A DNA stretch of 64,000 nt from an uncultured Gemmatimonadales bacterium (GTDB taxonomy: Bacteria > Gemmatimonadota > Gemmatimonadetes > Longimicrobiales > RSA9). The stretch spans positions 1,216,001-1,280,000 of the forward strand of contig CAVUKA010000001.1 of assembly GCA_963741945.1 (NCBI GenBank), read 5' to 3'. The position numbers and the translations under genes are program-made. The first letter of the stretch is position 1. Every line of letters starts with the position of its first letter. This document shows, one piece after another, positions 2,651-22,541 of this stretch. The notes under the pieces are model-generated. The model saw only the letters and a list, made by a program, of their open reading frames with translations, did not search any database and had not been told where the DNA came from.

Positions 2651-4264
2651 CTACTCGCGATTCGCCACCTGGAAGACCGTGTCCAGCACGGTCCCGTCCA
2701 CCCATTTCACGATGGCTACCGGCCGGTCGGTGACCCGCGGCGGCGCCGGCGCGCCGCCAATCATCCGGTCCACCTCGGCCTTGATCTCGGGCAGCGGCCG
2801 TATGGGAAGGCCGGAGCCGGCCGTGGCCCGGATCAGGTCCTCCCGCTTCGGGTTGATGGCGATGCCACGTTCCGTCACCACGACGTCGATGAGCTCGCCC
2901 GGGCCGGTGAGCGTGGTCACCCGATCCACCAGCACCGGAATGCGATCGCGGAACGCCGGCACGGCCAGGATGGTGCACCCGCTGAACAGGCAATTCTGCC
3001 AGCCACCGATCCCGTGGAGCAGCATGCCGTCCGAGTGGGTGACCACGTTGGCGTTGAAGTCCACGTCCACTTCTGTGGCGCCCAGCACCACGGCGTCCAC
3101 CATGGAGGCGAAGTTCCCCTTCCCATGGTAGTTGTAGGAGGTGAACGGCGATGTGGCGACGTGGCGCGCATCGCTCCCGATGGACTGCACGCCCGCCAGG
3201 TCGAACGTCTGGCCGTCCAGGATGTAGTCGGTGAGCCCCTCCCGCAGCAGGTCCACCAGGTACTTCGTCGAGCCGCCCCGGACGAACCGGGCCTTCACGC
3301 CCGCCTCCTTCATCAGCTCCTTCAGATAGCCCACGAAGGCCAGGGCGATTCCGCCCGCGCCCGCCTGGAAGCTGAAGCCGTCGCGCATGATCCCGGCTTC
3401 CTTGAGGAAGCGGGCCACGTACTCGGCAATGAGCAGCCGGTCCGGGCTCTTCGTGATCTCGGTGGTGCCGGACACGATCTTCGACGGGTCGCCCACGGAG
3501 TCCACCACCACGACGTGGTCGACGTTGTTGCCCTGGATCTGCCAGGGGATGCACGGGAACGGCACGACGTTGTCCGTCACCACGATGACGTGGTCGGCGT
3601 ACATGGAGTCGGCCAGGGCGAAGCCCAGGGAGCCGCACGCGGACGGCCCGTGCGAGCCATCCGCGTTGCCGAACGGGTCCGCCGTGGGGGCGGCGATCAC
3701 CGCGATGTCCACGTGGACTTCCCCGTCCTGGATGGCCTGCCAGCGGCCGCCGTGGGAACGGAGCACGCCCAGCCCCGCCATCCGGCCGCGCGACGTGTAG
3801 TCGCCCAGCGGCCCGTTCATGCTCCCCTCGATGTGGTGCACCACGCCCCGATCCATGAGATCCACCACCGGCGCCTGCACGGGGAACGACGCGCTCGGGA
3901 ACCAGCGCAGCCCGCTGACCCCGATTTCCGCCGCGGCCTGGAGCGCCGCGACCGCCACCCGGTCACCGTTCCGGAAGTGGTGGTGCGTGGAAATCGTCAT
4001 CCCATCCCGGAGTCCGCACGCTTCCAGCGCCGCGCGCAGGCTCGGAACGCGCTTGTCCCCGTTCGCCGGATAGTCGCTGGACGAGCGGATCGGCGGCCCG
4101 GCCTTGCGCCCCTCCGGTACGCGTGCACCCACGCCCGCGTACGCCACCTGCGACTCCCCGTTCACCACCAGCGGCACCCGCCGACCGGCCGCGTTCTCCA
4201 CCAGCTCCGCCCACGCCGGGCCCTCCAGCCAGGGCGCTGCCGGTACCTTCGTGATCACACTCAC
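2651..4264 (-). CDS. citF: Citrate lyase alpha subunit / citrate CoA-transferase-like
   Basis: GLRDGMTISTHHHFRNGD, RSHGGR, ACGSLGFA, FSFQAGAGG, LGATEVDVDFNANV, IDVVVTERGIAINP; GTG start overlaps the upstream TGA (GTGA). Confidence 0.9.
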   Translation of the reverse strand: MSVITKVPAAPWLEGPAWAELVENAAGRRVPLVVNGESQVAYAGVGARVPEGRKAGPPIRSSSDYPANGDKRVPSLRAALEACGLRDGMTISTHHHFRNGDRVAVAALQAAAEIGVSGLRWFPSASFPVQAPVVDLMDRGVVHHIEGSMNGPLGDYTSRGRMAGLGVLRSHGGRWQAIQDGEVHVDIAVIAAPTADPFGNADGSHGPSACGSLGFALADSMYADHVIVVTDNVVPFPCIPWQIQGNNVDHVVVVDSVGDPSKIVSGTTEITKSPDRLLIAEYVARFLKEAGIMRDGFSFQAGAGGIALAFVGYLKELMKEAGVKARFVRGGSTKYLVDLLREGLTDYILDGQTFDLAGVQSIGSDARHVATSPFTSYNYHGKGNFASMVDAVVLGATEVDVDFNANVVTHSDGMLLHGIGGWQNCLFSGCTILAVPAFRDRIPVLVDRVTTLTGPGELIDVVVTERGIAINPKREDLIRATAGSGLPIRPLPEIKAEVDRMIGGAPAPPRVTDRPVAIVKWVDGTVLDTVFQVANRE

Positions 4265-5613
4265 GTGCCACCCCCGTCCGAGCCGGTCGAGGCTGGCGAC
4301 GCCGTGACCCCGCCCGCGTCCACACCGCTCCCGTTCACCAGTCCCATCTCCCTCGCCCGCTCCACCAGCCGCCTCGCCCGCAGCACCACCGGCGGATCGA
4401 TCATCTTGCTGCCCAGGCTCACCACACCCAGCCCGCGCGCTTCCGCTGCCTCGAACGCCGCCACGATCTTCAGCGCTCTCTCCAGTTCCGCGGCCGTCGG
4501 CGCGAAGCCCGCGTGGATCACCCGGATCTGGCGCGGATGGACGCACCCCATCCCGATGAAGCCCATGGCGTGCGACGCCCGGGCCCACTCGAGCAGCCCC
4601 TCCACGTCCGCCACATCACCGTAGACCGAGTCGATGGCCTGCACGCCGGCCGCCCGCGCCGCGTTCGCCAGCCGCTCCCGCGCCCACAGCGTCTCGGCCC
4701 CCTGCTTCGTCTTGGCCACGCCCATGTCGGCGGTGTAGTCCTCCAGCCCGATGGTCAGCGCCGCTACCATTCCGGACGCGCGCGCAATGGCGAACGCGTT
4801 CTCGATCCCGAGCGCCGACTCCAGGATCGGCATGAGCCAGACCGGCCGCTCGTCGTGCGACGGCAGCGCCGCCGACATCCGGATGGCCGCGATCCGGTCG
4901 GCGACTTCCACCACCTGCGCCGCCTCCTCCACCTTGGGGATCAGCACCAGGTTCGGGAGCTCGGGCACGATGGCATCGAGGTCCTCCAGCCCCAGCGGCA
5001 GCTGGTTGATCCGCACCATCCGCTCGGCCGGGCCGAAGTCCACGCAGCGGAGGGCGTTCCGCACCAGAAGCCTCGCCGCCGCCTTCGCGTCCCGATGGAC
5101 GGAGTCCTCGAGGTCCAGGATCACGCCATCCGGACCGTGGAGCCCCGCGTTCAGCATGAACTTGGGCTCGTTCCCCGGCAGGTAGAGACGCGACCGGCGG
5201 AGCCGGTCCTTCGCCGTGCGACTGCCACGCGTGGCCGGGGCGGCGCCGTCGGCGCACGGGATCGCCGCCGCGGCGTCGTTCGCCACCAGCCCGGCTGCGC
5301 GGGCGGCGGCCTCGACGCGGGCCGCAATGACCCACGGCACCGCACCCTTGTCGTTCACCGACACGCGGGCGGCTGCCACGCCGAGCAGCGCAAGGGTGTC
5401 GAGGACCGTGGCGCGGATGGCGTCGCCGAAAAGCGACTCCACCCTCGACGTCAGTGACAGCTCGATCCCATCACCGCCCACCTCCACCGCGACGTGCAGG
5501 TCGGAGCGGACGTCATCGCCCGCTCGACCCGCCTCACCCCGGGGCGTGGCGGCCGCGACCGCCGTTGCGCCGCCTCCCTCTCCCGATGGTGTCGCGCCCG
5601 CCTGATCGCTCAT
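4261..5613 (-). CDS. citE: Fusion of CitD-like acyl-carrier (gamma) domain and CitE-like citryl-CoA lyase (beta) domain
   Basis: N-terminal SDLHV...IELSLTSRVESLFGDAIRATV...VNDKGA...AARVEAA is CitD-like. C-terminal RRSRLYLPGN, VILDLEDSV, VRIN, LIPKVE, ILESALG, GLEDY, GCVHPRQI, KMIDPP is HpcH/CitE-like. Confidence 0.85.
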   Translation of the reverse strand: MSDQAGATPSGEGGGATAVAAATPRGEAGRAGDDVRSDLHVAVEVGGDGIELSLTSRVESLFGDAIRATVLDTLALLGVAAARVSVNDKGAVPWVIAARVEAAARAAGLVANDAAAAIPCADGAAPATRGSRTAKDRLRRSRLYLPGNEPKFMLNAGLHGPDGVILDLEDSVHRDAKAAARLLVRNALRCVDFGPAERMVRINQLPLGLEDLDAIVPELPNLVLIPKVEEAAQVVEVADRIAAIRMSAALPSHDERPVWLMPILESALGIENAFAIARASGMVAALTIGLEDYTADMGVAKTKQGAETLWARERLANAARAAGVQAIDSVYGDVADVEGLLEWARASHAMGFIGMGCVHPRQIRVIHAGFAPTAAELERALKIVAAFEAAEARGLGVVSLGSKMIDPPVVLRARRLVERAREMGLVNGSGVDAGGVTASPASTGSDGGGT

Positions 5614-6824
5614 CCCGACCGCCCGCCCGCGGCCACGGGCGAGGCCAGCGCCGCGAGGATCGCGTCCGTCACTTCCGTGGTGCTGTCCGCGCCCTGCGCG
5701 ATGGCGTCCGGTCCGCCGGAGATCCGCATCATGTCATAGCTGCGCACTTTCCCATCCTGCACCACGGCCGCCACGGCGGTGCGCACCTGCTCGGCCTTGC
5801 CGGTCTCGCCCACGTGGTCCAGGAGCATCGCCGCGCTCAGGATCATGGCGATCGGGTTCACGATGGGCGGGTCGAGGCTCTCGTATTTCGGAGCCGAGCC
5901 GTGCGTGGGCTCGAAGACCGCTACCTCGTCCCCGATGTTCCCGGAGCAGGCGAAGCCGAGACCGCCGACCAGCCCGGCGAAACCGTCGCTCACGATGTCG
6001 CCGAACATGTTCCCGGCCACGATCACCCCGTAGTCCTCGGGGTTCTTCGTCAGCCACATCATCTGGGCATCGATGTTCGTGGACCAGAGTTGGATGTCGG
6101 GGAAGTCCTCGTGCGCCTTCTTCGCTTCCTCCTCCATCATGCCGCTGGTCTCGCGCAGCACGTTCGGCTTCTCGCACACCGTCACGCTCTCGTAGCCATG
6201 CTTCAGCGCATACTCGAACGCCGCCCTCGTGATGCGGGCGCACGCGCGGCGGGTGAAGATGCGAGTCGAGATCGCCAGGTCGTGCGAGGGCGTATCGGCG
6301 AAGCGGTCGAACTTCGGGTGCGTGCCCAGCGCATCCCGCACCGCCTTCGGCGGGTTCGTCCACTCCACGCCCGCGTACAGACCTTCCGTGTTCTGCCGGA
6401 AGATCACCGCGTCCACCACCGGCTCGTCCATGCCGCCATCCATGCCCCGCCGGACGAAGTTCAGCGGGTTGCCCGGGAACGACCGGCAGGGGCGGATGCA
6501 GAGGTCGAGGTCGAAGCGCTGACGCAGCCCCACGATCGGGCTGAAGTACACGTAGCCCTGGTCCTTCAGCTCTCGCTTCAGCTCCCGCGCCGCCGCCGTC
6601 TTCGGCTTCGACGTGATGGCGCCGAACAGGCCGAGCTTGTGCTCCGCCAGCAACTCCACCGTCCGCTCCGGCAGCGCGTTCCCCTCGTTGACCCAGAACT
6701 CCCATCCGATGTCCGCTTGGATGTATTCCGCGTCGAAACCCACCGCTTCCAGAACGCGCAGCGCTTCCGGCAGGACCACTTTGCCGATGCCGTCGCCCGG
6801 CATCGTCACGACCGTGTGCTTCAT
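5610..6824 (-). CDS. Beta-decarboxylating dehydrogenase (ICDH/IPMDH family), most like homoisocitrate dehydrogenase
   Basis: PGDGIGKVV, LFGAITS, YFSPIVGLRQRFDL, FRQNTEGLY, KPNVL, NMFGDIVSD, FEPTHGSAP, NPIAMILS. Confidence 0.85.
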   Translation of the reverse strand: MKHTVVTMPGDGIGKVVLPEALRVLEAVGFDAEYIQADIGWEFWVNEGNALPERTVELLAEHKLGLFGAITSKPKTAAARELKRELKDQGYVYFSPIVGLRQRFDLDLCIRPCRSFPGNPLNFVRRGMDGGMDEPVVDAVIFRQNTEGLYAGVEWTNPPKAVRDALGTHPKFDRFADTPSHDLAISTRIFTRRACARITRAAFEYALKHGYESVTVCEKPNVLRETSGMMEEEAKKAHEDFPDIQLWSTNIDAQMMWLTKNPEDYGVIVAGNMFGDIVSDGFAGLVGGLGFACSGNIGDEVAVFEPTHGSAPKYESLDPPIVNPIAMILSAAMLLDHVGETGKAEQVRTAVAAVVQDGKVRSYDMMRISGGPDAIAQGADSTTEVTDAILAALASPVAAGGRSG

Positions 6825-6852
6825 GCTCCTCCTATCGGCTCTCGAATCCCAC

Positions 6853-8802
6853 TCAAGCGTGAACGGTTATCCCCAGCGTCGCCCGTACCTTCGCCTCCGC
6901 CCCCCCGGCCACCACCAGGCTCTGCGGCACTCGCCCGAGCGCGGGAAAGCGGTACGTCTCTTCCCGCCACTCGATGGTGCCCCGGCGGAAATTCACCATG
7001 ATCTCCTCGCCCGGGATGATCGTGGGCTCACCCGCGGCCACCTGTGCCGCGAGCGCCTTCTCCACCGCGTGCACCAGCCCCGGGCATTCGACGCAGATGA
7101 ACCCGTTGTTGAACGCGTTCCGCTGGTACGTCTGCGACAGGCTCTCGGCGATCACCAGCGCGATCCCCTTGGCCTGCAGCGCCGTGGCCGCCTGCTCCCG
7201 GCTGGAGCCCGTGCCGAAGTTGCGCGTGCCCACCAGGATGTCGCCCGCGGCCGTGCGCCCCGCGAACTCGGGGTCGTAGTTGGCCATGACCACGGCCGCC
7301 ATCTCGGACGGCGAACGGTCCCGGTACGTGTGCTCCTTGCCGTAGATGCCGTCCGTATTCAGGTTCTCCTGCGGCACGAACACGAGCCGCCCCGTGACCT
7401 GCGCGGGGAAGCCGGGGAGGATCTCGACCGAGTCGTCGGCATCATCCAGGCGATCGAGGGCGCGGAAATCGTACGGCGGAACCCCGGCCGCCACGCGCCC
7501 GTCCTTGATGCGCCCGGCCAGCGCCGAGGCCGCCACCACGGCCGGACTGGCCAGGTAGACGCGCGCATCGCGGGAGCCCATGCGCCCCTTGAAGTTGCGG
7601 TTCGTCGCCGAGATCCCGACTTCCCCGTCCTGCAGCAGCCCCTCACCCAGCCCGATGCACGGGCCGCAGCCGGGCGGCAGCACTCTGGCGCCGGCATCCA
7701 GCAGCGCTCCCCACGCACCGCTCGCCTCCGCCTTCTCCTGGATCTCCCGGCTCGCCGCAGCCACGTAGAACGACACCCGGGGCGACACACGCTGCCCCCG
7801 GACCACCTCCGCGGCCGCTTCCAGGTCCTCCAGCCTGCCGTTCACACACGACAGGAGGTAGGCCCTGTCGATCTCGATCCCCTCCCCTTCCACCTCCCCC
7901 ACCGGGCGCCCCGTCTGCACCGTGTCGGGCCCGGTCAGGAACGGGCTCACCTTCCCCACGTCCACGATGATGCGGCCCACGTAGCGCGCATCCGAATCGG
8001 GCCGCGGCGGGGCAGCGCTCCAGGCGAAGAGCTGCGCGTCCGTGATCCTGTGGTGGTCGGCGGCCTCCAGCCTCGCCTTCCGCTCCTGCAGGAACTGGAT
8101 CGTGCGCGCGTCCACGGGGAACCACCCGGCCAGCGCGCCCCACTCCGTGGTCATGTTGGCGATGGTCATGCGGGCGGCCATGTCCAGCGAGGCCACGCCC
8201 GGCCCGGCGAACTCCACCACCCGGTTCAGCACTTCGCCGCTCGAGTAGAGCGAGCAGAGCGTGAGGATCACGTCCTTCCCGCTGACCCCCGGGCGCAGCT
8301 GTCCTTCCAGCACCACCTGGACGGTTCCCGGCACCTGCCACCAGAACTCGCCCGTGGCCCAGATCACCGCCGCATCCGTCCGCACGACGGGCGTGCCCAG
8401 GGCCCCGACAGCGCCATAGGTGTTGGCGTGCGAATCGGAGGCGACCACCAGCGTGCCCGGGAGCGCATACCCGCGCTCGATGATGATCTGGTGACCGATC
8501 CCCGTCCCCGCGGGGTGGAAATCCAGCCCGTGCTCCCGCGCGAACGTCCGGATCCGGGTGTACTTCTCGAGGTTCTCGGGCGAGCGGTTCTGGATCTCGT
8601 GGTCCAGCACGATCACCGGCTGCCGCGGGTCGTGGATGCGATCCACGCCGATGGCCCTGAACTTCGACATCACCGCCGCGGTGTTGTCGTGGGTCAATAT
8701 GTGCCGCGGCCGGAGGGACACCATGTCCCCCGGCCGGAGCGGTCGATCGGGCCCATCGACCATGTGGGCCCGTGCGATCTTCTCCACCATCGTCGCGCCC
8801 AT
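6853..8802 (-). CDS. lysF: Single-chain homoaconitase-like hydratase (large and swivel domains fused)
   Basis: THDNT, LDHEIQN, GIGHQ, SDSHANTYG, TPVVRTDAA.IWATG, SCVNGR and GCGPCIG (three Fe-S Cys), SATNRNFKGRMG, NTDGIY, NFGTGSSREQA; RBS GAGGAGG before ATG 8802. Confidence 0.85.
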   Translation of the reverse strand: MGATMVEKIARAHMVDGPDRPLRPGDMVSLRPRHILTHDNTAAVMSKFRAIGVDRIHDPRQPVIVLDHEIQNRSPENLEKYTRIRTFAREHGLDFHPAGTGIGHQIIIERGYALPGTLVVASDSHANTYGAVGALGTPVVRTDAAVIWATGEFWWQVPGTVQVVLEGQLRPGVSGKDVILTLCSLYSSGEVLNRVVEFAGPGVASLDMAARMTIANMTTEWGALAGWFPVDARTIQFLQERKARLEAADHHRITDAQLFAWSAAPPRPDSDARYVGRIIVDVGKVSPFLTGPDTVQTGRPVGEVEGEGIEIDRAYLLSCVNGRLEDLEAAAEVVRGQRVSPRVSFYVAAASREIQEKAEASGAWGALLDAGARVLPPGCGPCIGLGEGLLQDGEVGISATNRNFKGRMGSRDARVYLASPAVVAASALAGRIKDGRVAAGVPPYDFRALDRLDDADDSVEILPGFPAQVTGRLVFVPQENLNTDGIYGKEHTYRDRSPSEMAAVVMANYDPEFAGRTAAGDILVGTRNFGTGSSREQAATALQAKGIALVIAESLSQTYQRNAFNNGFICVECPGLVHAVEKALAAQVAAGEPTIIPGEEIMVNFRRGTIEWREETYRFPALGRVPQSLVVAGGAEAKVRATLGITVHA

Positions 8803-8885
8803 CGATCCTCCTCGCCTCGACCCCTTCTCCGCCTGGGTCGCGGCTTGCTGGGATTGCCGAGCGGGCCCGCGCGGCCCGCCGGCGC

Positions 8886-10286
8886 CTACCGGTCCGCCCG
8901 TGTCAGCCGCATGAGCGCCGCTGCGCTCTCCTGCCGCTCCAGCGTCCACACGGCCTCTATCAGGCGGCGCTGGGCGTCCCGCGTCATCACGGGCTCCGCC
9001 AGCGCCGCGAACTTCTCCTCCACCTCACCATCCGTCAGCGGGTTCCGCGGATCGCCCTTCGGGTAGTCCAACTGCTTCGTCAGCTCGCGGCCATCCGTGG
9101 TCCGGACGGTCACATGCACCCGCTGCAGCGCCGGGAACACCGCCTCGATCTCCGCGTCCCCCACCACTTCCACCTTCTCCAGCTGCGCCCGGACCTCCGG
9201 GTCCATGATGCGCGCTTCCTCGAACTGCCGCGGCGTCACCTGCCGGTCCACGATGGCCGCCGCGATCACGTAGGGCAGGCTGTGGTCCGCCGTCTCCTTC
9301 GTGCGCGGATCGTACTTGCTCGCGTCCGCCAGGATGTCCGCCGCCCGGGCCAGTGACCGGATCCGGACCTTCTCGATCTCAGCCGGCTTCAGGTCGTGCT
9401 CGAGCACCACGTCCAGCACGGCCGAGATCGGCGCGTGCGTCAGCGCTTCCGTCGGGAACGCCTTCATCCCGCACCGCTCGATCCGCCAACTCTCGCCGAG
9501 CCCCTCCGTCAGCACCTCCAGCTTCCACTCGGGGCCCATCACGTGGACCAGCCCCTCCTTCCCTTCCACCACCCCCTCCGGACCCGTGTACCCACGCTCC
9601 GCCAGCAGCGCAGCCATCACCCCCGCCTGAGTCGCCATCGGGTCCGCCGTGTTCTTCATCATCGACAGCTTCCCCGCCACCACCCCGCCCACCGTGGCGT
9701 GGCTCGATCCGCTGATCCCGATCGCGTGCCGGATCTGCTCCGCGTCCAGCCCCGCCAGCCGCCCCGCCACGACCGGCGACACGAACGCCGTCAGCGTGGC
9801 ATGGTGCCAGCCCCGCTCCCGGATCCCCGGGAACGCCGCTTCGCAGAAGCGCATCTCCAGCTCGTGCCCCAGCACGATCCCCAGGATGACGTCCCGGCCC
9901 CCCAGCCCCTGCCGCTCCGCCATCGCCAGCGCCGCCGGGATCAGGTCCGACGGATGCGACGGGTCCTGCTGCCAGTAGATGTCGTTGTAGTCCATCACCC
10001 GGACCATCAGCGCGTTCGCCAGCGACGCCGACACCACGTCCATGCGACGCCCGCTCCCCACCACCGTGGCCGGCCCCTCCCCCGCCACTTCGTCCAGAAC
10101 CTGGAGCGCGATCTTCACGTCGTGCTGACCGTACCCGCCCAGCGCGCAGCCCAGCGAGTCCAGCAGGTAGCGCTTCGCCTCGTGAACGGCCCGCGGGCCC
10201 AGCTCGTCGAACGAGAGATCGGCTGCCCAGCGGGCGAGCTGCGCGCTCACGGTCCCGACGGGTGGGGAAGAAACGGTCGTCGCCAT
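8886..10286 (-). CDS. MmgE/PrpD-family dehydratase
   Basis: LLDSLGCALGG, RVMDYND, SHPSDLIP, RGWHH, KLSMMK, EGKEG, KAFPTE, KETADHSLPY, PKGDPRNP. Confidence 0.9.
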   Translation of the reverse strand: MATTVSSPPVGTVSAQLARWAADLSFDELGPRAVHEAKRYLLDSLGCALGGYGQHDVKIALQVLDEVAGEGPATVVGSGRRMDVVSASLANALMVRVMDYNDIYWQQDPSHPSDLIPAALAMAERQGLGGRDVILGIVLGHELEMRFCEAAFPGIRERGWHHATLTAFVSPVVAGRLAGLDAEQIRHAIGISGSSHATVGGVVAGKLSMMKNTADPMATQAGVMAALLAERGYTGPEGVVEGKEGLVHVMGPEWKLEVLTEGLGESWRIERCGMKAFPTEALTHAPISAVLDVVLEHDLKPAEIEKVRIRSLARAADILADASKYDPRTKETADHSLPYVIAAAIVDRQVTPRQFEEARIMDPEVRAQLEKVEVVGDAEIEAVFPALQRVHVTVRTTDGRELTKQLDYPKGDPRNPLTDGEVEEKFAALAEPVMTRDAQRRLIEAVWTLERQESAAALMRLTRADR

Positions 10287-10457
10287 GCGGCCTCCGGGGG
10301 GGTCAGGGTCGGTCCTCTCGCGAAGCTATGACACCGCCCCCCGCGGGGCTGTGGGGAATCCCTTGAAATCGTGGCGGGTGCGGGACGACGAAAACGCATG
10401 CAGGGAAGGAGGGATTCCCTTACAGACCGCTCCCCCGCCTCCCCCGCCCTGCCCCTC

Positions 10458-11024
10458 CTAGCGAAACGGCAGGTACGCCATGAAGTCGGCGTGGTGCACG
10501 ATGATCGCCTCGGTGCTCCGCTTGACGAGGTCGCCCTCGCCGGCGTGCGCGGCGATGATGTGGCACACGGCATCCGGCACGCCCGCCTCCAGGGCGAGGG
10601 CGACGCCGGTGAAGGGGTGGCGGAGCGCCCGGCCGCGAGCGCTCTGCCGGGTGTCGTCGCCTGCCTTCTCGTACTCCAGCAGCTTGCCGACATCGGCCAG
10701 GATCGCGCCGGCGATGACCGTGTCCCGGTCGATTTCGAGCGCGTGGCCCATGAAATCCGTCATCGCTCGCGCGCCATCGCGGGCGATGTGGACCACGCAC
10801 CGCTTGTGCTGCATGAACGTGGCGCGGCAGTCCTTTACCAGGAGGGTGAACGGGATCCGCTCCAGGTCGCCCGCCGTGAGCGGGCTCCGCTCCAGCGCCA
10901 GCTCCCACGTGCGTGCGACGCGCTCCCTCAGCTCGCGATCCTCGATCCACGCCAGCTCCGGCCACAGCCGCTCCACGTCCGACCGCAGCGCTTCGCCCGC
11001 CGATCCCGTCATCGTGTCCGTCAT
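10458..11024 (-). CDS. HD-superfamily protein with variant motif (LADVGK)
   Basis: QHKRCV...GAILADVGKLLEY...RHPFTG...HIIAAHAGEG...IIVHHADF follows the HD-domain motif layout. Confidence 0.8.
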   Translation of the reverse strand: MTDTMTGSAGEALRSDVERLWPELAWIEDRELRERVARTWELALERSPLTAGDLERIPFTLLVKDCRATFMQHKRCVVHIARDGARAMTDFMGHALEIDRDTVIAGAILADVGKLLEYEKAGDDTRQSARGRALRHPFTGVALALEAGVPDAVCHIIAAHAGEGDLVKRSTEAIIVHHADFMAYLPFR

Positions 11025-11150: not shown

Positions 11151-12068
11151 CTAGATGAAGAAGCGGTCCACGAGCATGAGGATCAGGAGGGCGGGCAGGT
11201 AGAGGATGGAGCCGAAGAAGAGGTGCCAGGCGCGCCGGTCGTCGCGTACCTGCCAGAGCCGGCCGCCGAGCACAACCATGGCGCCGCCCAGGACCAGTGC
11301 GCCGGCGCCATAGATCCAGTCGATGAGCCCGGTGCCGACCAGCACCATGCTGGAGACCAGAAGGAGCGCGGAGTAGAACGTGCTCTCGAGCCCGAGACGC
11401 CGCCCCTGCGGGTCCACCACGGTGAGCATGCGCATCCCGCCCCGTGCGTAGTCATCGCGGTAGACCCAGGCCAGGGCGTAGAAGTGCGGCATCTGCCAGA
11501 AGAAGACCACGCCCATGAGCGCCAGGGCGGCGAGGGTGATGGGGTGCCCGGCGGCCGTCCACCCCGCGAGAGTCGGGAGCGAGCCCGGCAGCGCGCCGAT
11601 CAGGGTGGCATGGTGGGTCCGTCGCTTGAGCGGCGTGTAGACCAGGATGTAGGTGATCAGGCTCGTCGCCACGAGCACGAGCGTCTCGAGGTTGACGAAC
11701 AGCCCGAGGTGCACCAGCCCGAGCACCGAAAGCAGGAGAGCCAGCGCCAGAGCCGTCCCCGGCGACACGCGGCCCGCCGGGAGCGGCCGCATGCGCGTCC
11801 GCTTCATGAACGCGTCCGTCTCCCGCTCCCACCACATGTTCAGCGCGTTCGCCCCCGCCGAGGCCAGCGCGGCGCCGAACACGGTGTTGAAGAGGCGCAG
11901 CAGCTCGAGGTCGCGCCCGGCCGCCATCAGGTATCCCGCCCCCGTGGTGAAAACGACGAGACGCGTGATCCCCGGCTTCGTCAGCTCGGCCAGGTCGCCG
12001 AACACGGTCCGGAAGCTCGTCGACCGCGTCCGCTCTCTACCCGTTGATGTCTCGGTGGTCGCAGGCAC
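11151..12068 (-). CDS. ctaB: Protoheme IX farnesyltransferase (heme o synthase)
   Basis: ELTKPGI, GANALN...ERETDAFMKRTRMRPLPAG, YTPLKRRT, GALPGSLP.L.GW, FFWQMPHF, YRDDY; start uncertain (GTG 12068). Confidence 0.92.
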   Translation of the reverse strand: MPATTETSTGRERTRSTSFRTVFGDLAELTKPGITRLVVFTTGAGYLMAAGRDLELLRLFNTVFGAALASAGANALNMWWERETDAFMKRTRMRPLPAGRVSPGTALALALLLSVLGLVHLGLFVNLETLVLVATSLITYILVYTPLKRRTHHATLIGALPGSLPTLAGWTAAGHPITLAALALMGVVFFWQMPHFYALAWVYRDDYARGGMRMLTVVDPQGRRLGLESTFYSALLLVSSMVLVGTGLIDWIYGAGALVLGGAMVVLGGRLWQVRDDRRAWHLFFGSILYLPALLILMLVDRFFI

Positions 12069-12129
12069 GCCGCAAAGTAACGGGATGCGGGTGCGGCCGG
12101 GAGGCCGCCCCCCGCCCTCCCGCCCCCCG

Positions 12130-13234
12130 GCGGACCTGGTACCAAATTCCAGATAGTCCTCATCTGCTATCCTCCTGCCCCGCCACCACCGGCACCTTGC
12201 CGCCATGCCACGCACCCCTCGCCCGTACCTGCCCGGCGCAGTCTTCCACGTCACCGCGCGCACCCAGGGCCACATGCCCTGGTTTACGCCGGATGTCCGC
12301 GGCGCCATGGTGGCTCGCCTGACCTCATCCCTCGCCTCCTCGGACGGTCGTCTGCTCGCATACGCCGTCATGCCGAACCACCTGCATCTCGTTCTGCAGC
12401 AGGGGGATTGGCCACTCGGCCGTGTGCTTCAGCCAGCCCTCCGCAAGATCGCGCTACTGGTCCAGAGCCGGCATGGCGTCGAGGGTCACGTGTTCGAGCG
12501 ACGGTTCCGCGCCTCCCCCTGCCTCGACCCCGACTATGCTCGCAATGCGATCGTGTACACCAACCTCAACCCCGTGCGAGCGGGGCTGACGCCGGACGCC
12601 GTGGAGTATCCGTGGACGTCCCACCAGCGCTACGCGGACGCTACACCGGCGAGCTCGACAGCCGTCGACTGCCTCGCCGGACTGCGCCTGTTCGCGGCGT
12701 CGATTCGCGCCGGACCGCCGGCACTGCGGCGGAGCTACCTCCGGTACGTCGCATGGCGCCTCGAGTGCGACGCCATCCGGGGTGCGACCGGAGCTTCGGA
12801 CCACCACCGGCCACTTCCGCCTCTTCCGCCCCTGGTCCACGCGGCCGGGCGCTGGTCCGAGGCCTACGCGCCCCTGTTCTGCTCGCCTGCCCCGGATCCG
12901 GTCCGGCCAGCGCCACGCCCCGACCTCCGCGACATCGCGCGCCGGGTGCTGGCCTCCGCGCCCGAAACCGTGGATCTCGCGCGAGTGCGCAGCCGCAGCA
13001 AGGCAACCAATGTGGTCCGGATCCGTCGGGCCATGATCATCCGCATGGATGCCGCAGGGCACAGCAGGGGAGCCATCGCACACTATGCGAGGGTGAGCGT
13101 GCAGTGCGTCTCACACGTGTTGGTTACGGAGAGGACGCGACGAGGGCGGGATCTTCACAAGGAGTACCCGCAAGCATGACGGAGACCAGCGCGGGAGGCC
13201 CCTTCTAAGAATTTGGATTCGGTACCAGGTCCGC
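12130..13234. mobile_element. Putative element made of a RAYT-type transposase gene between terminal inverted repeats
   Basis: GCGGACCTGGTACC at 12130-12143 and its exact reverse complement GGTACCAGGTCCGC at 13221-13234 enclose only the transposase gene; no target-site duplication seen. Confidence 0.65.
12205..13179 (+). CDS. Y1/HUH tyrosine transposase (RAYT-like) with C-terminal HTH extension
   Basis: FHVTAR, AYAVMPNHLHL (HUH), GHVFERRF, VYTNLNPVRAGL (catalytic Tyr), YPWTS; basic helical C-terminal tail. Confidence 0.88.
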   Translation: MPRTPRPYLPGAVFHVTARTQGHMPWFTPDVRGAMVARLTSSLASSDGRLLAYAVMPNHLHLVLQQGDWPLGRVLQPALRKIALLVQSRHGVEGHVFERRFRASPCLDPDYARNAIVYTNLNPVRAGLTPDAVEYPWTSHQRYADATPASSTAVDCLAGLRLFAASIRAGPPALRRSYLRYVAWRLECDAIRGATGASDHHRPLPPLPPLVHAAGRWSEAYAPLFCSPAPDPVRPAPRPDLRDIARRVLASAPETVDLARVRSRSKATNVVRIRRAMIIRMDAAGHSRGAIAHYARVSVQCVSHVLVTERTRRGRDLHKEYPQA

Positions 13235-13299: not shown

Positions 13300-14715
13300 C
13301 TACACCTTCTTCAGCTCGCTCACCAGCGCTGTCAGCACCTTCTTCGCGTCGCCGAACAGCATCCGGTTGTTGTCCTTGTAGAACAGCGGGTTGTCCGTCC
13401 CCGCGAACCCCGGATTCAGGCTCCGCTTGATGACGATGGTGTTCTTCGCGAAATCCGCGTTGATGATCGGCATCCCGTACAGCGGGCTGTCCTTGTTGGT
13501 CCGCGCGTCCGGGTTCACCACGTCGTTGGCGCCCACGATCAGCACCACGTCCGTGCGCTCCAGCTCGCTGTTGATGTCGTCCGCCTCGTACAGCTGGTCG
13601 TACGGCACATTGGCCTCCGCCAGCAGCACGTTCATGTGACCGGGCATGCGCCCCGCCACCGGGTGGATCGCGAACTTCACGCTCACACCCTTCTCGGCGA
13701 GCAGGTCCGACAGCTCCCTCGCCTGGTGCTGCGCCTGCGCCACGGCCAGCCCGTAGCCCGGGACGATCACCACGCTCTCCGAGTAGGACATGAGGACGGC
13801 GGTGTCCTCGGCGTTGATCTCCTTCACGATCTTGGGCCCACCCTCGCCCGCCGCCACGGCCGCCGTCTGCGAGCCGAAAGCGCTGAACAGCACGTTCGCC
13901 AGCGACCGGTTCATCGCGCGGCACATGATGGCGCTCAGGATGATCCCGGACGCACCCACCAGCGCGCCGGCGATGATCAGCACGTTGTTGTTCAGCACGA
14001 ACCCCGTGGCGGACGCCGCGAGGCCCGAATACGAGTTGAGCAGCGCCACCACGACCGGCATGTCCGCGCCCCCGATGGGCATCACGAACATGATGCCGAA
14101 GATCAGCGACAGCGCGGCCAGTGCGACGAACCACCCGGCGCCCGCGCCCGGCACCGCCGTCAGGTAGCCACCGATGCCCAGCGTGGTCAGGAACACCAGC
14201 AGGTTGACGAAATTGCCGCCCGGGTAGGTGAGCGCCTTCTCGAAGTGACCTTCGAGCTTCGCCCACGCCAGGAAGCTCCCCGACAGGGTCACGGCGCCGA
14301 TGAGCACCGAAAGCACGATGGTCAGGGCGACGGTGATCGTCGCGTCCGCCGTCGACGGCTTCAGGAACTCCACGGCCGCGACCAGCGCCGACGCGCCACC
14401 GCCGAAGCCGTTGAAGATGGCCACCATCTGCGGCATGGCCGTCATCTTGACCCATTTGGCCAGGAACCAGCCAATGCCGGAACCGACCGCGAGGCCGACC
14501 ACGATCCACAGCCAGTCCAGCCCGCCCTGCAGCACCTGTCCATCGACCATGGTGGCGACGATGGCCAGGAGCATACCCAGGGCGCCCAGCAGGTTGCCTC
14601 GCCGCGCCGTCTTCGGGGAGCTGAGCTGCTTCAGCCCCAGGATGAACAGGACTGACGCGACCAGGTACGCAATCTTGATGAAGACCGGCAGCGGTCCTCC
14701 AATTTGTGCCTCCAC
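13300..14715 (-). CDS. pntB: NAD(P) transhydrogenase subunit beta
   Basis: KMTAMPQMVA.FNGFGG, PIGGADMPVV.ALLNSYSG, AMNRS, VPGYGLAVAQAQ, AIHPVAGRMPGHMNVLLAEA, GANDVVNP. Confidence 0.97.
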   Translation of the reverse strand: MEAQIGGPLPVFIKIAYLVASVLFILGLKQLSSPKTARRGNLLGALGMLLAIVATMVDGQVLQGGLDWLWIVVGLAVGSGIGWFLAKWVKMTAMPQMVAIFNGFGGGASALVAAVEFLKPSTADATITVALTIVLSVLIGAVTLSGSFLAWAKLEGHFEKALTYPGGNFVNLLVFLTTLGIGGYLTAVPGAGAGWFVALAALSLIFGIMFVMPIGGADMPVVVALLNSYSGLAASATGFVLNNNVLIIAGALVGASGIILSAIMCRAMNRSLANVLFSAFGSQTAAVAAGEGGPKIVKEINAEDTAVLMSYSESVVIVPGYGLAVAQAQHQARELSDLLAEKGVSVKFAIHPVAGRMPGHMNVLLAEANVPYDQLYEADDINSELERTDVVLIVGANDVVNPDARTNKDSPLYGMPIINADFAKNTIVIKRSLNPGFAGTDNPLFYKDNNRMLFGDAKKVLTALVSELKKV

Positions 14716-14716
14716 G

Positions 14717-15019
14717 TCAGGCCTCCCGTTCTTCCTTCTTCTTGAACATCTGGAGCATGCGATCGGTCACCACGAAGCCGCCGACCACGTTGATCGTCGC
14801 CACGATGAGCGCGATCACGCCCAGGATCGTCGAAACCGTCCCCTCCGTGAGGGCCGAAAGCACCAGGATCGCGCCCACGATGGTGATCCCCGAGATCGCG
14901 TTGGACCCGGACATCAGCGGCGTGTGGAGGATCGTCGGCACTTTCGTGATGACCTCGAAGCCCACGAAGATCGCGAGCACGAGAATGTAGATCGAAAACA
15001 GCAGATCGTAGCCTTGCAT
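14717..15019 (-). CDS. pntA: NAD(P) transhydrogenase subunit alpha, membrane part
   Basis: KVPTILHTPLMSGSNAISG, NVVGGFVVTDRMLQMF; ATG 15019 with upstream GAGGAGGGGAAGG. Confidence 0.95.
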   Translation of the reverse strand: MQGYDLLFSIYILVLAIFVGFEVITKVPTILHTPLMSGSNAISGITIVGAILVLSALTEGTVSTILGVIALIVATINVVGGFVVTDRMLQMFKKKEEREA

Positions 15020-15032
15020 ATCCTTCCCCTCC

Positions 15033-16181
15033 TCAGGCGCCCGCGCCAATGGCGGCGCGCGTCCGTTCGTGCACGACCGACCCGTCGTGGGTGACGCACG
15101 ACTCCCGCGTGATCTCGTCCTCGAAGTCCAGCTTGAGCGCCTTCGTCTCCTCGTCGTAGAGGTGCTTCAGCAGCTCGTGGATGTTCTTCGAGTACATCTG
15201 GCTGGAGTTCTTCGGCAGCTCGCTCGCGGCGTCGATGATGCCGACCACCTTGACGCCGTTCTCCACCACCGTCTCGCCGGCCCGCGTGAGCTCGCAGTTG
15301 CCGCCCGACTCCGCGGCCAGGTCCACGATCACCGCGCCCGGACGCATCGCTTCCACCATGTCCCGCGTGATCAGCACCGGCGCCTTCCGCCCCGGCACCT
15401 GCGCCGTGGTGATCACCACGTCGCTCTCCGCGCAGATCTTGTGGAGCAGCTCGTGCTCCTTCTTCTGCTGGTCCTCCGTCACTTCCTTGGCGTAGCCGCC
15501 CTTCGTCTCCGCCTCTTCCAGCGTGATCCCCACGAACTGCGCGCCCAGGCTCTCCACCTGCTCGGCCGCGGCCGGGCGGATGTCGAAGCCCTTCACCCGC
15601 GCCCCCAGCCGCTTCGCCGTCGCGATCGCCTGGAGCCCGGCCACACCCGCGCCGATCACCAGCACCTTCGCCGGCGGGATCGTCCCCGCCGCCGTGGTCA
15701 GCATGGGGAAGAACACGTCCACGTCCAGCGCGCCGCGAAGCGCCGCGATGTAGCCCGCGGACGTCGCCTGGCTGGAGAGCGCGTCCATGCGCTGCGCCAC
15801 CGTGATCCGGGGCACCAGCTCCATGCTGAAGCTCGTCACTCTCGCCGCCGCCAGACCGTTCACCAGCTCGGGCGAGACCAGTGGCTGGAGGAAGGCGATC
15901 AGCGCGCCTCCGGCCTTGAGCTTCGCCACCTCGTCGACCGCTCCGGCTCCCACCGTCGGCGGCGCCACCTTCACCACAACGTCGGCAGCAAAAACGGCAG
16001 CGTCATCCGCCACCGTCGCGCCCGCATCGGCATATGCTGAGTCGGCAAAACCGGCCTCGGTCCCCGCCCCCTTCTCCACCACCACGTCCATCCCCGAGCC
16101 CACCAGCTTCGCCACTGTGTCCGGGACCAGGGCGACCCGACGCTCCCCCCGGGCCACCTCCCGTGGCACTCCTACCTTCAT
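15033..16181 (-). CDS. pntA: NAD(P) transhydrogenase subunit alpha, soluble domain I
   Basis: GERRVALVP, PRITVAQRMDALSSQ, FFPMLTTAAGT, GAGVAGLQAIATA, ITTAQVPG, DLAAESGGNC. Confidence 0.97.
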   Translation of the reverse strand: MKVGVPREVARGERRVALVPDTVAKLVGSGMDVVVEKGAGTEAGFADSAYADAGATVADDAAVFAADVVVKVAPPTVGAGAVDEVAKLKAGGALIAFLQPLVSPELVNGLAAARVTSFSMELVPRITVAQRMDALSSQATSAGYIAALRGALDVDVFFPMLTTAAGTIPPAKVLVIGAGVAGLQAIATAKRLGARVKGFDIRPAAAEQVESLGAQFVGITLEEAETKGGYAKEVTEDQQKKEHELLHKICAESDVVITTAQVPGRKAPVLITRDMVEAMRPGAVIVDLAAESGGNCELTRAGETVVENGVKVVGIIDAASELPKNSSQMYSKNIHELLKHLYDEETKALKLDFEDEITRESCVTHDGSVVHERTRAAIGAGA

Positions 16182-20889: not shown

Positions 20890-21062
20890 GCTGTGTCCGC
20901 ACCCGGGGCGAGCACGCCTGGCGCGTCCCGGCCGGATCGGCGAGCGGGTCACCGGGGACATGGGCGGCACCACTGGGCCTGTGCCCGAAAATTGCAACCC
21001 CGGGAGCGCCGAACGGCGAGGCAGCGAAACCGTTGCAGGATCCACGGAGCGGAGCAGAGCAC

Positions 21063-22541
21063 ATGGAGGAGGCACCCCGGGATCGGTGTCCGATGGGCAT
21101 TTCGGGACTCGACGAAGTCCTGCATGGCGGTCTGATCCGGCAGCGCGCGTACCTCGTCCGGGGCGGTCCCGGGACGGGGAAGACCACGCTGGGGCTTCAC
21201 TTCCTCCAGACGGGGGTGGCGCAGGGAGAGACGGTCCTGCTGATCACGCTCGAGTCCTCCGAGGCGCAGCTCCACGCGGATGCGGAAGCGCAGGGGCTGG
21301 ACGTGTCGGGCATAACGTTCCTGGACCTCAGTCCCGGTCGTGAATTCTTCGCGGAGAACCAGAGCTACGACCTCTTCTCTCCGGCGGACGTGGAGCGGGA
21401 CCCGACCACGCGGCGGATCATCGAGACCATCGAGCGGGAGCGGCCGGCGCGGGTGTTCGTCGACGCCATCACGGCCATGGGCTACCTCGCCCCGGACGCG
21501 TTCCAGTTCCGCAAGCAGGTGCTTTCCTTTCTCCGCTACCTGGTGGAGCACGGGGCGACGGTCCTCATGAGCTCGGAGCCCACCGGCAGCGTCCCCGACG
21601 ACGACCTCCGGTTCATGGCCGACGGGATCATCGAGGTCGAGGTCTCGCCGGATCACGGCACCCTGCGGCGCTCGCTGGGCGTGACGAAGCTCCGGGGATC
21701 GGACTTCGCCGGCGGGCGGCATGCCTTGCGGCTGACGGATCACGGCGTCGTCGTCTTCCCGCGGCTGGTTCCGGGGCGGTACGAGCGGGCGTTCGACCCG
21801 GAGATCGTGCCATCGGGGATCGCGGAGCTGGACGCGATGATGGGCGGCGGGATCGAGCGGGGAACCATCACGATCGTGAGCGGTCCGAGCGGTGTGGGGA
21901 AGACCACGCTGGGGACGCAGTTCCTGGCCGAAGCCGCCACGCGCGGCGAGCGGTCGACGCTCTACACGTTCGAGGAGCAGGAGGAGACGCTCCTGCACCG
22001 CTGCAGCGCCATCGGGATGCCCGTGCGTGACATGGTCGACGCGGGGATGTTGTCGGTGGTGAGCGTGGAGCCGCTGCGCTTCTCTCCCGCCGAGTTCGCC
22101 CTGCTCGTCCGGGAGGAGGTCGAGGAGCGCGGCGCCAGGCTGATCATGATCGACGGGATCTCGGGTTACCGCCTCACGCTTGCCGGCGACGACCTGCTGA
22201 CCCATCTCCACGCCCTCGGCCGCTACCTGAAGAACATGGGCGCGACGGTGCTCCTCATCAACGAGGTTGAGGGGATCACGGGCGAGTTCCACGCCACCGA
22301 CATCGGGGCCAGCTATCTGAGTGACAACCTGATCTTCCTCCGCTACCTGGAGATCGAGGGTGAGCTGCGCAAGGCGATCGGGGTGCTGAAGAAACGGCTG
22401 GGTGATTTCGGCAAGACGCTGCGTGAGATGACCATCACCGATTGCGGGATCGTGGTGGGCGAGCCGCTCACCGGCCTGCGGGGAATCCTCACGGGCACGC
22501 CGGAATGGTCGCATCCCCACCGCTCACCGGGTGAGGCGTGA
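21063..22541 (+). CDS. KaiC-like double RecA-domain ATPase
   Basis: Two Walker A motifs (GGPGTGKTT, GPSGVGKTT), GISGLD/SGIAELD, TLES/TFEE, VTKLRGS/VLKKR, SYLSDNL. Confidence 0.9.
   Translation: MEEAPRDRCPMGISGLDEVLHGGLIRQRAYLVRGGPGTGKTTLGLHFLQTGVAQGETVLLITLESSEAQLHADAEAQGLDVSGITFLDLSPGREFFAENQSYDLFSPADVERDPTTRRIIETIERERPARVFVDAITAMGYLAPDAFQFRKQVLSFLRYLVEHGATVLMSSEPTGSVPDDDLRFMADGIIEVEVSPDHGTLRRSLGVTKLRGSDFAGGRHALRLTDHGVVVFPRLVPGRYERAFDPEIVPSGIAELDAMMGGGIERGTITIVSGPSGVGKTTLGTQFLAEAATRGERSTLYTFEEQEETLLHRCSAIGMPVRDMVDAGMLSVVSVEPLRFSPAEFALLVREEVEERGARLIMIDGISGYRLTLAGDDLLTHLHALGRYLKNMGATVLLINEVEGITGEFHATDIGASYLSDNLIFLRYLEIEGELRKAIGVLKKRLGDFGKTLREMTITDCGIVVGEPLTGLRGILTGTPEWSHPHRSPGEA

Follow-up and report, generated by a model that had tools for sequence, protein, structure and literature searches.

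Background

In the upper part of the alpha-aminoadipate pathway of fungi and Thermus, homocitrate synthase is followed by a Lys4-type homoaconitase and a homoisocitrate dehydrogenase (HICDH), and a separate enzyme is needed for the half-reaction from homocitrate to cis-homoaconitate, which is carried out by the housekeeping aconitase. Citrate lyase (EC 4.1.3.6) consists of a carrier, a lyase and a transferase (CitD, CitE and CitF) that go together with CitC, CitX and CitG (citCDEFXG in E. coli), in the methylcitrate cycle PrpD dehydrates and an aconitase rehydrates, and the reductive citric acid cycle of Hydrogenobacter has a citryl-CoA synthetase and a citryl-CoA lyase. Here we describe six genes on the minus strand, at positions 2651-11024 of a stretch of 64,000 nucleotides from an uncultured Gemmatimonadales bacterium (contig CAVUKA010000001.1 of assembly GCA_963741945.1; the whole stretch is referred to as the window), that share traits with each of these systems. 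They are best described as a real, widespread and uncharacterised operon, a new combination of known kinds of enzymes that is a member of none of the systems with which we compared it.

The reading of the operon that we prefer, tentatively and with somewhat less than even confidence, is that it encodes a self-contained tricarboxylate module working at the level of homocitrate, with flux in this organism most likely in the direction of chain shortening. CitF and a CitD-CitE fusion protein would form a citrate-lyase-type enzyme for the reversible cleavage of homocitrate, or of an acid very much like it, to 2-oxoglutarate and acetate, a PrpD-family enzyme and a Lys4-type Fe-S homoaconitase would each take one half of the interconversion of homocitrate, cis-homoaconitate and homoisocitrate, and an NADP-type dehydrogenase would interconvert homoisocitrate with 2-oxoadipate and CO2. 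The net flux here would then run from 2-oxoadipate, CO2 and NADPH via homoisocitrate, cis-homoaconitate and homocitrate to 2-oxoglutarate and acetate. We infer the substrates, the order of the steps, their direction and the charging of the carrier from sequence comparison; the assignment to the homocitrate level is moderately supported.

The operon and its conservation

The window has a G+C content of about 70% and is part of a genome of 4.09 Mb (96.7% complete; Gemmatimonadota, order Longimicrobiales). The six genes lie head to tail and encode, in order of transcription, an HD-fold protein, a PrpD-family enzyme, a homoaconitase, a dehydrogenase of the isocitrate dehydrogenase (IDH) family, the CitD-CitE fusion and CitF (Table 1). 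The stop codon of the dehydrogenase gene and the start codon of the CitD-CitE gene overlap by 4 bp (ATGA at 5613-5610), as do the stop codon of the latter and the start codon of the CitF gene (GTGA at 4264-4261), and the remaining intergenic gaps measure 171, 83 and 28 nt; the ATG at 8802 as start of the homoaconitase gene agrees with the start of its orthologues. Given this tight packing, the two 4-bp overlaps and the conserved order described below, the six genes are one operon. Scans of the DNA for sigma-70 promoters and for intrinsic terminators gave no matches. An earlier sequence-only reading of this DNA had noticed six co-oriented genes, the last three overlapping by 4 bp, and no citC, citG, citX or homocitrate synthase in the cluster or the window. 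The domain searches and the sequence of the overlaps bear out the former, and the window scan agrees with the latter: it yielded none of the three cit genes, and the single gene of the LeuA/HCS/CimA family (HCS, homocitrate synthase) lies elsewhere in the genome.

Table 1. Genes of the operon and other features of the window mentioned in the text
Feature	Position	Strand	Length (aa)	Evidence and remarks
HD-fold protein	10458..11024	-	188	first gene of the operon; TIGR00277 HDIG 30.2 bits (cut-off 27.6); without Pfam match
MmgE/PrpD-family enzyme	8886..10286	-	466	PF03972 MmgE_PrpD_N 243 bits, PF19305 MmgE_PrpD_C 158 bits
Fused large and small aconitase-family hydro-lyase, Lys4-type homoaconitase	6853..8802	-	649	Aconitase 353 bits and Aconitase_C; TIGR00139 664.4 bits (cut-off 529.9)
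Beta-decarboxylating dehydrogenase, IDH/IPMDH/HICDH family	5610..6824	-	404	PF00180 Iso_dh 251 bits
CitD-like carrier domain fused to CitE-like lyase	4261..5613	-	450	PF06857 ACP 67.7 bits (cut-off 25.1) and PF03328 HpcH_HpaI 166 bits
CitF-like acyl transferase	2651..4264	-	537	GTG start; PF04223 422 bits
Heme o synthase, ctaB	11151..12371	-
REP-associated tyrosine transposase-like gene	12205..13179	+		NF047646 51.9 bits (cut-off 80 not reached)
Proton-translocating NAD(P) transhydrogenase, pntAA, pntAB, pntB	13300..16181	-
KaiC-family ATPase gene, then histidine kinase gene	21033..23617	+		4-bp overlap

The gene for the HD-fold protein was used as a marker of the operon. A pattern search that was seeded with 14 of these proteins and covered the contigs of one genome per species returned at least 536 stretches encoding a relative, of which the best 80 were taken as loci for the study of conservation; in 62 of these the DNA extends for 8.2 kb or more beyond the HD gene, and the other 18 are too short. 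All six genes were found in the same order, with intact frames and at 55-82% protein identity, in 55 of the 62 sufficiently long loci, and the arrangement is therefore far beyond what chance would give. The best 80 loci are distributed over Gemmatimonadota, Acidobacteriota (mostly Terriglobales), Rhodothermales, Verrucomicrobiota (Verrucomicrobiia, Akkermansiaceae), Polyangia and Krumholzibacteriia, with one metagenome-assembled genome (MAG) labelled Clostridia among them, and the sufficiently long loci span at least five phyla. After the cluster of the seven incomplete long loci no evident replacement genes were seen. A search of the whole genome, made for five of the seven, located CitF elsewhere at 63-77% identity in four, and a 35% match in the fifth.

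The same picture emerged among 41 related genomes (the genome of the window counted). Nine have the fused form of CitD-CitE (63-100% identity) and five further relatives have just a CitE-like gene (36-42% identity). Of eight loci fetched from relatives, six have the six genes in order, one (G039) lacks the PrpD gene only, and one is a contig fragment of 4.3 kb. The sequence-only reading had staked its case on the six genes being conserved together in other genomes, as they indeed are in these six loci and in the 55 long ones.

Within Gemmatimonadota the marker is patchy (20 of 301 sampled genomes). The flanks of the block vary as well: every flanking gene family is limited to 15 of 87 loci at most, and the block is accompanied by neither a transporter nor a regulator, the recurrent families being an Aas-like acyltransferase, phosphofructokinase, a short-chain dehydrogenase and GalT. 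Among the six proteins CitF ranks second in conservation (74-82% identity), and in a quick tree it groups mostly by phylum, with short branches. The CitF of a Verrucomicrobiia MAG (L074) is nested within the Acidobacteriota in that tree (SH-aLRT 97), a placement that may reflect either a transfer or a binning error of the contig.

Functional assignment of the encoded proteins

The homoaconitase, in which the large and the small domain are fused, clearly exceeds the cut-off of the Lys4 equivalog model TIGR00139. Its Fe-S cluster would be bound by Cys319, Cys379 and Cys382, three residues that show no variation among 12 orthologues. A basic residue in a loop of the small domain presumably determines specificity, and we assume that the 'LRT' loop of the small subunit of a methanogen homoaconitase (2pkp) sets substrate choice in this way; the small-subunit-like domain encoded here has an Arg that aligns with the Arg of this loop, a position at which an isopropylmalate/citramalate isomerase (3vba) has V/Y.

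For the PrpD-family enzyme, none of the PrpD equivalog models was reached (NF042438, 101 bits against 950; NF006943, 86 against 575; TIGR02330, 67 against 458), and its nearest solved relatives are IDS epimerase (3e-40) and IRG1/cis-aconitate decarboxylase (1e-30), followed by PrpD itself (1e-16). Since it is nearer to the epimerase and the decarboxylase than to PrpD, its role as the dehydratase of homocitrate is an assumption.

The dehydrogenase has the Thermus HICDHs 3asj and 1x0l as its nearest solved relatives (6e-56). Its best NCBIfam match is AksF2 (264.4 bits, cut-off 540), followed by AksF (255.5 bits, cut-off 500), so that the HICDH equivalogs are not reached. We aligned its catalytic residues with those of E. 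coli IDH, the genome's own paralogues and five operon orthologues. It keeps R119, R129, R153, Y160, K230, D283, D307 and D311 (E. coli IDH numbering) as well as the equivalent of Ser113, and has Ile, as in Thermus HICDH, at the position of Asn115, the residue that presumably binds the gamma-carboxylate of isocitrate in IDH. It further has two inserts that are confined to the operon orthologues. The cofactor loop reads GSAPKY, as in E. coli IDH and the genome's own NADP-IDH, whereas the genome's NAD-type paralogues have GSAPDI; this motif points to a dehydrogenase of the NADP type.

In the lyase module, the CitD domain marginally reaches its equivalog model (TIGR01608, 63.9 bits, cut-off 63.5). 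CitF is 38% identical to E. coli CitF over 478 aa and the CitE domain 37% identical to E. coli CitE, and both stay below the cut-offs of their models (TIGR01584, 468.0 against 501.45 bits, and TIGR01588, 258.8 against 443.4 bits, respectively). The best solved relative of the CitE domain is the citramalyl-CoA lyase CLYBL (5vxc), and CitD has no structure in the Protein Data Bank. We take Ser14 of E. coli CitD to be the residue that carries the 2'-(5''-phosphoribosyl)-3'-dephospho-CoA group. In a MAFFT alignment Arg36 stands in the column of this serine and an invariant Ser37 one column later, Ser37 being kept in 117 of the 120 homologues listed (the remaining three comprise one with Gly and two without the N-terminus) and in all 62 loci whose match extends to the N-terminus. 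A shift of the loop by a single residue would account for this alignment as well as a loss of the serine would.

The HD-fold protein, which consistently accompanies the homoaconitase, is the most conserved member of the operon, with 120 homologues listed at 75-100% identity and 243 cluster representatives in a profile search at E up to 1e-30. Its structure model (pLDDT 82) has the HD fold and matches best the HD domain of YhaM (9h3f; VIA-align Z 13.2, rmsd 3.2 over 152 residues; Foldseek E 1.6e-4). The metal-binding dyad is broken: its His is replaced by Ala (Ala110-Asp111, in the motif ADVGK) in all 14 close homologues, whereas divergent relatives next to the clusters of ATP-citrate lyase (ACL) type described below keep the canonical HDVGK. 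The fold and language-model neighbours were generic HD hydrolases only, with Ddi2 cyanamide hydratase as a weak match (E 0.04, Z 6.8). A prediction of a complex between the HD-fold protein and the homoaconitase scored 0.00 in a run without controls, which is no evidence either way. Nine longer matches among the best 150 relatives were scanned: P0352 is a fusion of a GNAT acetyltransferase with the HD protein, and several others (among P0250, P0276, P0319 and P0370) have an extra N-terminal part of about 200 residues, which resembles a second HD domain in P0276, the one examined.

Variants of the operon

Two Longimicrobiales genomes (G039 and G049) have the homoaconitase gene directly after the HD gene, and no PrpD-family orthologue was found in their clusters or elsewhere in these genomes (E up to 1e-20). 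They may thereby parallel fungi and Thermus with respect to the first half of the isomerisation.

Verrucomicrobiota were sampled as well (151 genomes, 43 with and 108 without an HD homologue), and 18 loci were fetched around more divergent HD homologues (36-64% identity). In 11 of these an aconitase-family gene adjoins the HD gene, and in two more a HICDH-like gene directly adjoins it. At two loci (L155 and L157) the HD gene is directly preceded by genes for an ATP-grasp_2 protein, a CoA_binding/Ligase_CoA protein and a protein with the C-terminal domain of citrate synthase, a trio that is a split ACL-like set (SucC-like, SucD-like and citryl-CoA-lyase-like). In L157 the subunits of the homoaconitase, an Iso_dh gene and a second aconitase-family pair follow, without PrpD and without CitDEF. 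The module that cleaves or forms the C-C bond and the first hydro-lyase have thus each been swapped for an analogue, whereas homoaconitase, dehydrogenase and HD protein are retained. A gene for an nSTAND1 NTPase is inserted between the large- and small-subunit genes of the homoaconitase in L157 (L157:11741-13447).

Both kinds of variant bear on the linear route of lyase, two hydro-lyases and dehydrogenase that the sequence-only reading had drawn. The route fits the family assignments and the module swaps in Verrucomicrobiota, with the reaction type of the PrpD-family enzyme remaining its assumed part. That PrpD is swapped for a second aconitase-type pair in Verrucomicrobiota, and is lacking in the two Longimicrobiales, argues for an isomerisation shared between two enzymes.

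Genome context

CitC (PF08218), CitG (PF01874) and CitX (PF03802) gave no matches in the genome, 96.7% complete as it is, while control genomes matched, which extends to the whole genome what had been noticed for the window. It follows that the canonical prosthetic group of citrate lyase and its acetylation cannot be made here.

For the tricarboxylates and for lysine, housekeeping enzymes are present outside the operon. AcnA (1425 bits) and NADP-IDH (668 bits) were found, next to LeuB-like, NAD-type IDH-like and LeuCD-like genes, and we therefore rejected the operon as a replacement of the housekeeping aconitase and IDH; the cluster is not a substitute for these citric acid cycle enzymes. DapA (292 bits, cut-off 206) and LysA (484 bits, cut-off 298) are present too, and LysA was found above cut-off in 40 of the 41 relatives, including all nine operon carriers. 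LysW gave no match in the genome or in any of the 24 genomes of the family; among the other relatives it matched in G027 only, with a sub-threshold match in G039. LysW-type synthesis of lysine via aminoadipate was accordingly rejected for this lineage, and the suggestion of the sequence-only reading that the lyase might replace homocitrate synthase in such a pathway is unlikely to apply here. The supply of biotin or pimelate by repeated elongation of 2-oxoacids was another candidate, rejected because BioB was found in 2 of the 41 relatives (G017 and G023) and in none of the nine operon carriers. Overall, lysine or biotin supply seems an unlikely role of the operon in this lineage. The counts over 41 genomes for BioB, LysA and the saccharopine dehydrogenases include four unpublished genomes (G016, G017, G020 and G026), none of them an operon carrier. 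Thus, the genome-wide check for which that reading had called found DapA, LysA, AcnA and NADP-IDH and did not find LysW; for homocitrate synthase it came down to the sole HMGL-like gene in the genome, of the LeuA/HCS/CimA family (C5:127394-128716) and of unassigned specificity, whose scores of 186, 178 and 177 bits do not come near the cut-off of any model.

A possible link with the turnover of 2-oxoadipate was sought as well. The genome has two adjacent saccharopine-dehydrogenase-like genes without an NCBIfam name. HglS, an alternative 2-oxoadipate sink, was found in none of the 41 relatives, so that its anticorrelation with the operon is uninformative. Eight acyl-CoA dehydrogenase genes are present, and none of the seven that were scanned for a glutaryl-CoA dehydrogenase reaches the cut-off of a named model. 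One acyl-CoA dehydrogenase gene directly follows an NAD-type IDH/HICDH-like paralogue (G000:C5:115321-117574; L177, L026), about 10 kb from the LeuA/HCS-family gene. The region that houses both saccharopine-dehydrogenase-like genes (L122; G000:C3:93560-106444) also has the genes of a [NiFe] hydrogenase 2 of Hyb type (the small and the large subunit, a HybA-like protein and a cytochrome b) and AceK, the isocitrate dehydrogenase kinase/phosphatase.

Proposed pathway and alternative explanations

The sequence-only reading had named both homocitrate-level and citrate-level chemistry as options. We favour the homocitrate level, since the homoaconitase passes TIGR00139 and has the Arg in the specificity loop, the dehydrogenase is nearest to the HICDH of Thermus, and AcnA and NADP-IDH are already present, which makes the citrate level less likely. 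Chain shortening as the direction here is suggested by the diaminopimelate route, which makes lysine, together with the fact that no lower aminoadipate pathway was seen; it is further favoured because two unrelated citrate-cleavage systems (CitDEF and the ACL-like trio) fill the slot of the lyase, because the motif of the dehydrogenase is of the NADP type, and because no 2-oxoadipate sink was found.

Several observations weigh against this reading. CitE and CitF stay below their equivalog cut-offs, as does the dehydrogenase for HICDH, and at the position of Arg85 of Thermus HICDH, which we take to be a specificity residue, the dehydrogenase has Val. The PrpD-family enzyme has an epimerase and a decarboxylase as closer relatives than PrpD, the canonical prosthetic group of the lyase and its acetylation cannot be made, and no transporter or regulator goes with the operon. 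Nor do the saccharopine-dehydrogenase-like genes point to a source of 2-oxoadipate, their profile being uninformative (present in 41 of 41 relatives, with or without the operon). The arguments for the direction are indirect, and the glutaryl-CoA route gives more energy than chain shortening would. Finally, the Verrucomicrobiota clusters lie amid housekeeping genes (ileS, lgt, lspA, tsaD, miaB and guaA) and thus look more biosynthesis-like, and the distribution of LysA in this phylum, discussed next, hints at a role in making lysine there.

Rather unlikely, in our judgement, is that the same enzymes run in reverse, the lyase module condensing an acetyl unit with 2-oxoglutarate to homocitrate and oxidative decarboxylation pulling the flux to 2-oxoadipate, with lysine, by way of a lower aminoadipate route not yet recognised, or some other derivative of aminoadipate as the end product. 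The Lys4-type homoaconitase is anabolic in fungi, this genome has just one gene of the LeuA/HCS family, and the missing transporter and regulator and the housekeeping neighbours in Verrucomicrobiota would suit such a role. Nevertheless, the diaminopimelate route is complete in the lineage of the window, known HICDHs use NAD whereas this dehydrogenase has an NADP motif, and the condensation of free acetate with a 2-oxoacid by a citrate-lyase-type enzyme is thermodynamically weak, with an equilibrium near 1 M. Verrucomicrobiota add to the case: 6 of their 43 HD-positive genomes have LysA above cut-off, compared with 61 of the 108 that are HD-negative (Fisher 1.4e-6; two of the 61, G073 and G098, are unpublished genomes), and DapA was found above cut-off in none of the five genomes with an ACL-type cluster. 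However, the contrast in LysA ignores kinship, and 47 of the 108 HD-negative genomes are likewise without LysA above cut-off. Moreover, LysW is missing from the five genomes with an ACL-type cluster as it is from the family of the window (0/5 and 0/24, respectively), and no Lys2-type reductase was found above cut-off in any of the 151 Verrucomicrobiota, so that a role in lysine synthesis would need an unknown lower pathway there.

Unlikely, too, is that the logic of the pathway is right and its substrates are others: citrate, isocitrate and 2-oxoglutarate (as a private reductive branch to oxaloacetate and acetate), citramalate, methylmalate and 2-oxobutyrate, or longer or substituted alkylcitrates, with the PrpD-family protein possibly an isomerase or a decarboxylase. 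The lyase subunits do resemble those of citrate lyase most closely (37-38% identity to E. coli), the equivalog models were missed save TIGR00139 and, marginally, that of CitD, and the closeness of the PrpD-family protein to IDS epimerase and cis-aconitate decarboxylase would fit, as would that of the CitE domain to CLYBL. For citrate, however, an ordinary aconitase performs both halves of the isomerisation, which makes two enzymes needless, and AcnA and NADP-IDH are present. The dehydrogenase gives a mixed answer in this respect, as it has retained the serine that corresponds to IDH Ser113 and is without the Arg85 of HICDH, but has Ile for Asn115. Hydrophobic or short substrates such as citraconate and isopropylmaleate are spoken against by the Arg in the specificity loop of the hydratase. 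That the six genes lie side by side but share no pathway, with what is left of a citrate lyase next to genes of amino-acid biosynthesis that have nothing to do with it, is close to refuted: the absence of CitC, CitG and CitX could mean a decaying lyase, but the order is kept across phyla at 55-82% identity with translational coupling, 55 of 62 loci have intact reading frames throughout, only the HD protein is more conserved than CitF (74-82%), and the lyase is kept elsewhere in the genome where the operon is split.

If chain shortening at the homocitrate level is indeed what the operon does, a common operon of Acidobacteriota, Gemmatimonadota and phyla near them would hold the front half of the aminoadipate pathway with a lyase for the synthase, possibly running backwards with uptake of CO2, a route that is not in the textbooks. 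A PrpD-family enzyme would then fill the long-vacant place of the 'homocitrate dehydratase' that works together with Lys4-type homoaconitases, a citrate-lyase-type complex would function without CitC, CitG and CitX, a very highly conserved HD-fold protein would have a function, and metabolic models of abundant soil bacteria would change. A more far-reaching proposal, which we regard as doubtful, is that of a reversible 'homocitrate shunt' in soil and sediment bacteria that would join 2-oxoadipate and 2-oxoglutarate without homocitrate synthase. In carriers like the organism of the window it would be a new end-route of lysine or aminoadipate breakdown, with NADPH-dependent CO2 fixation followed by the splitting of homocitrate without CitC, CitG or CitX, the ACL-like version of the PVC group might instead start an unrecognised aminoadipate route to lysine that is free of LysW and Lys2, and the HD protein would be an obligatory helper of Lys4-type homoaconitases.

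Neighbouring genes

A gap of 126 nt separates the HD gene from the heme o synthase gene ctaB on its upstream side. Compared with the family profile, the open frame of ctaB has some 120 additional residues at the N-terminus, and the gene is found upstream of the operon in a genome of the same genus (G001) and at one further locus (L033), at no other of the compared loci. Further upstream, on the strand of the operon, are the pnt genes for the proton-translocating transhydrogenase, which makes NADPH; they are separated from the operon by ctaB and the transposase gene, the latter lying between pntB and ctaB. The window also contains a KaiC-family ATPase gene followed by a histidine kinase gene (Table 1).

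Comparison with known systems

A full-text search of the literature (supplements not covered) gave no published description for 'homocitrate lyase', for PrpD with homoaconitase and citrate lyase, or for homocitrate with citrate lyase and 2-oxoadipate; 'homocitrate dehydratase' matched yeast work only, and PrpD with homocitrate only unrelated work. This agrees with the sequence-only reading, in which the combination was not recognised as a characterised pathway.

Citryl-CoA synthetase and citryl-CoA lyase, or ATP-citrate lyase, of the reductive citric acid cycle are paralleled by the trio of the Verrucomicrobiota variant, as a cleavage that would follow reductive carboxylation. That variant is not in this window, and its partners are homoaconitase-like and HICDH-like instead of the housekeeping aconitase and IDH. 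With the methylcitrate cycle the operon shares a PrpD-family enzyme beside an aconitase-family enzyme, which suggests a split isomerisation. Here, in contrast, the PrpD equivalogs are missed widely and the partner is of the homoaconitase type, not AcnB or AcnA; PrpC and PrpB were not seen in the domain scans of the cluster, the genome not having been searched for them.

Citrate lyase and the ACP-dependent citramalate lyase are like the operon in having a carrier, a lyase and a transferase that are translationally coupled. Unlike citrate lyase, the operon has the carrier fused to the lyase, with an Arg in the column of Ser14 and the invariant Ser at +1, its CitE and CitF fall below the equivalog cut-offs, CitC, CitG and CitX are absent from the genome, and the partners of the module are hydro-lyases and a dehydrogenase, not a citrate transporter.

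The whole alpha-aminoadipate pathway to lysine differs in that no LysW was found in the genome and that Lys2, for which this genome was not searched, was found above cut-off in 0 of 151 Verrucomicrobiota. The upper part of that pathway shares with the operon the fused Lys4-type homoaconitase and a HICDH-related dehydrogenase, the one in the operon having the NADP-type motif, Val at Arg85 and two inserts. In the operon, a citrate-lyase-type module is found where homocitrate synthase would stand, a PrpD-family protein takes the place of aconitase for the first half of the isomerisation, and an HD-fold protein is added.

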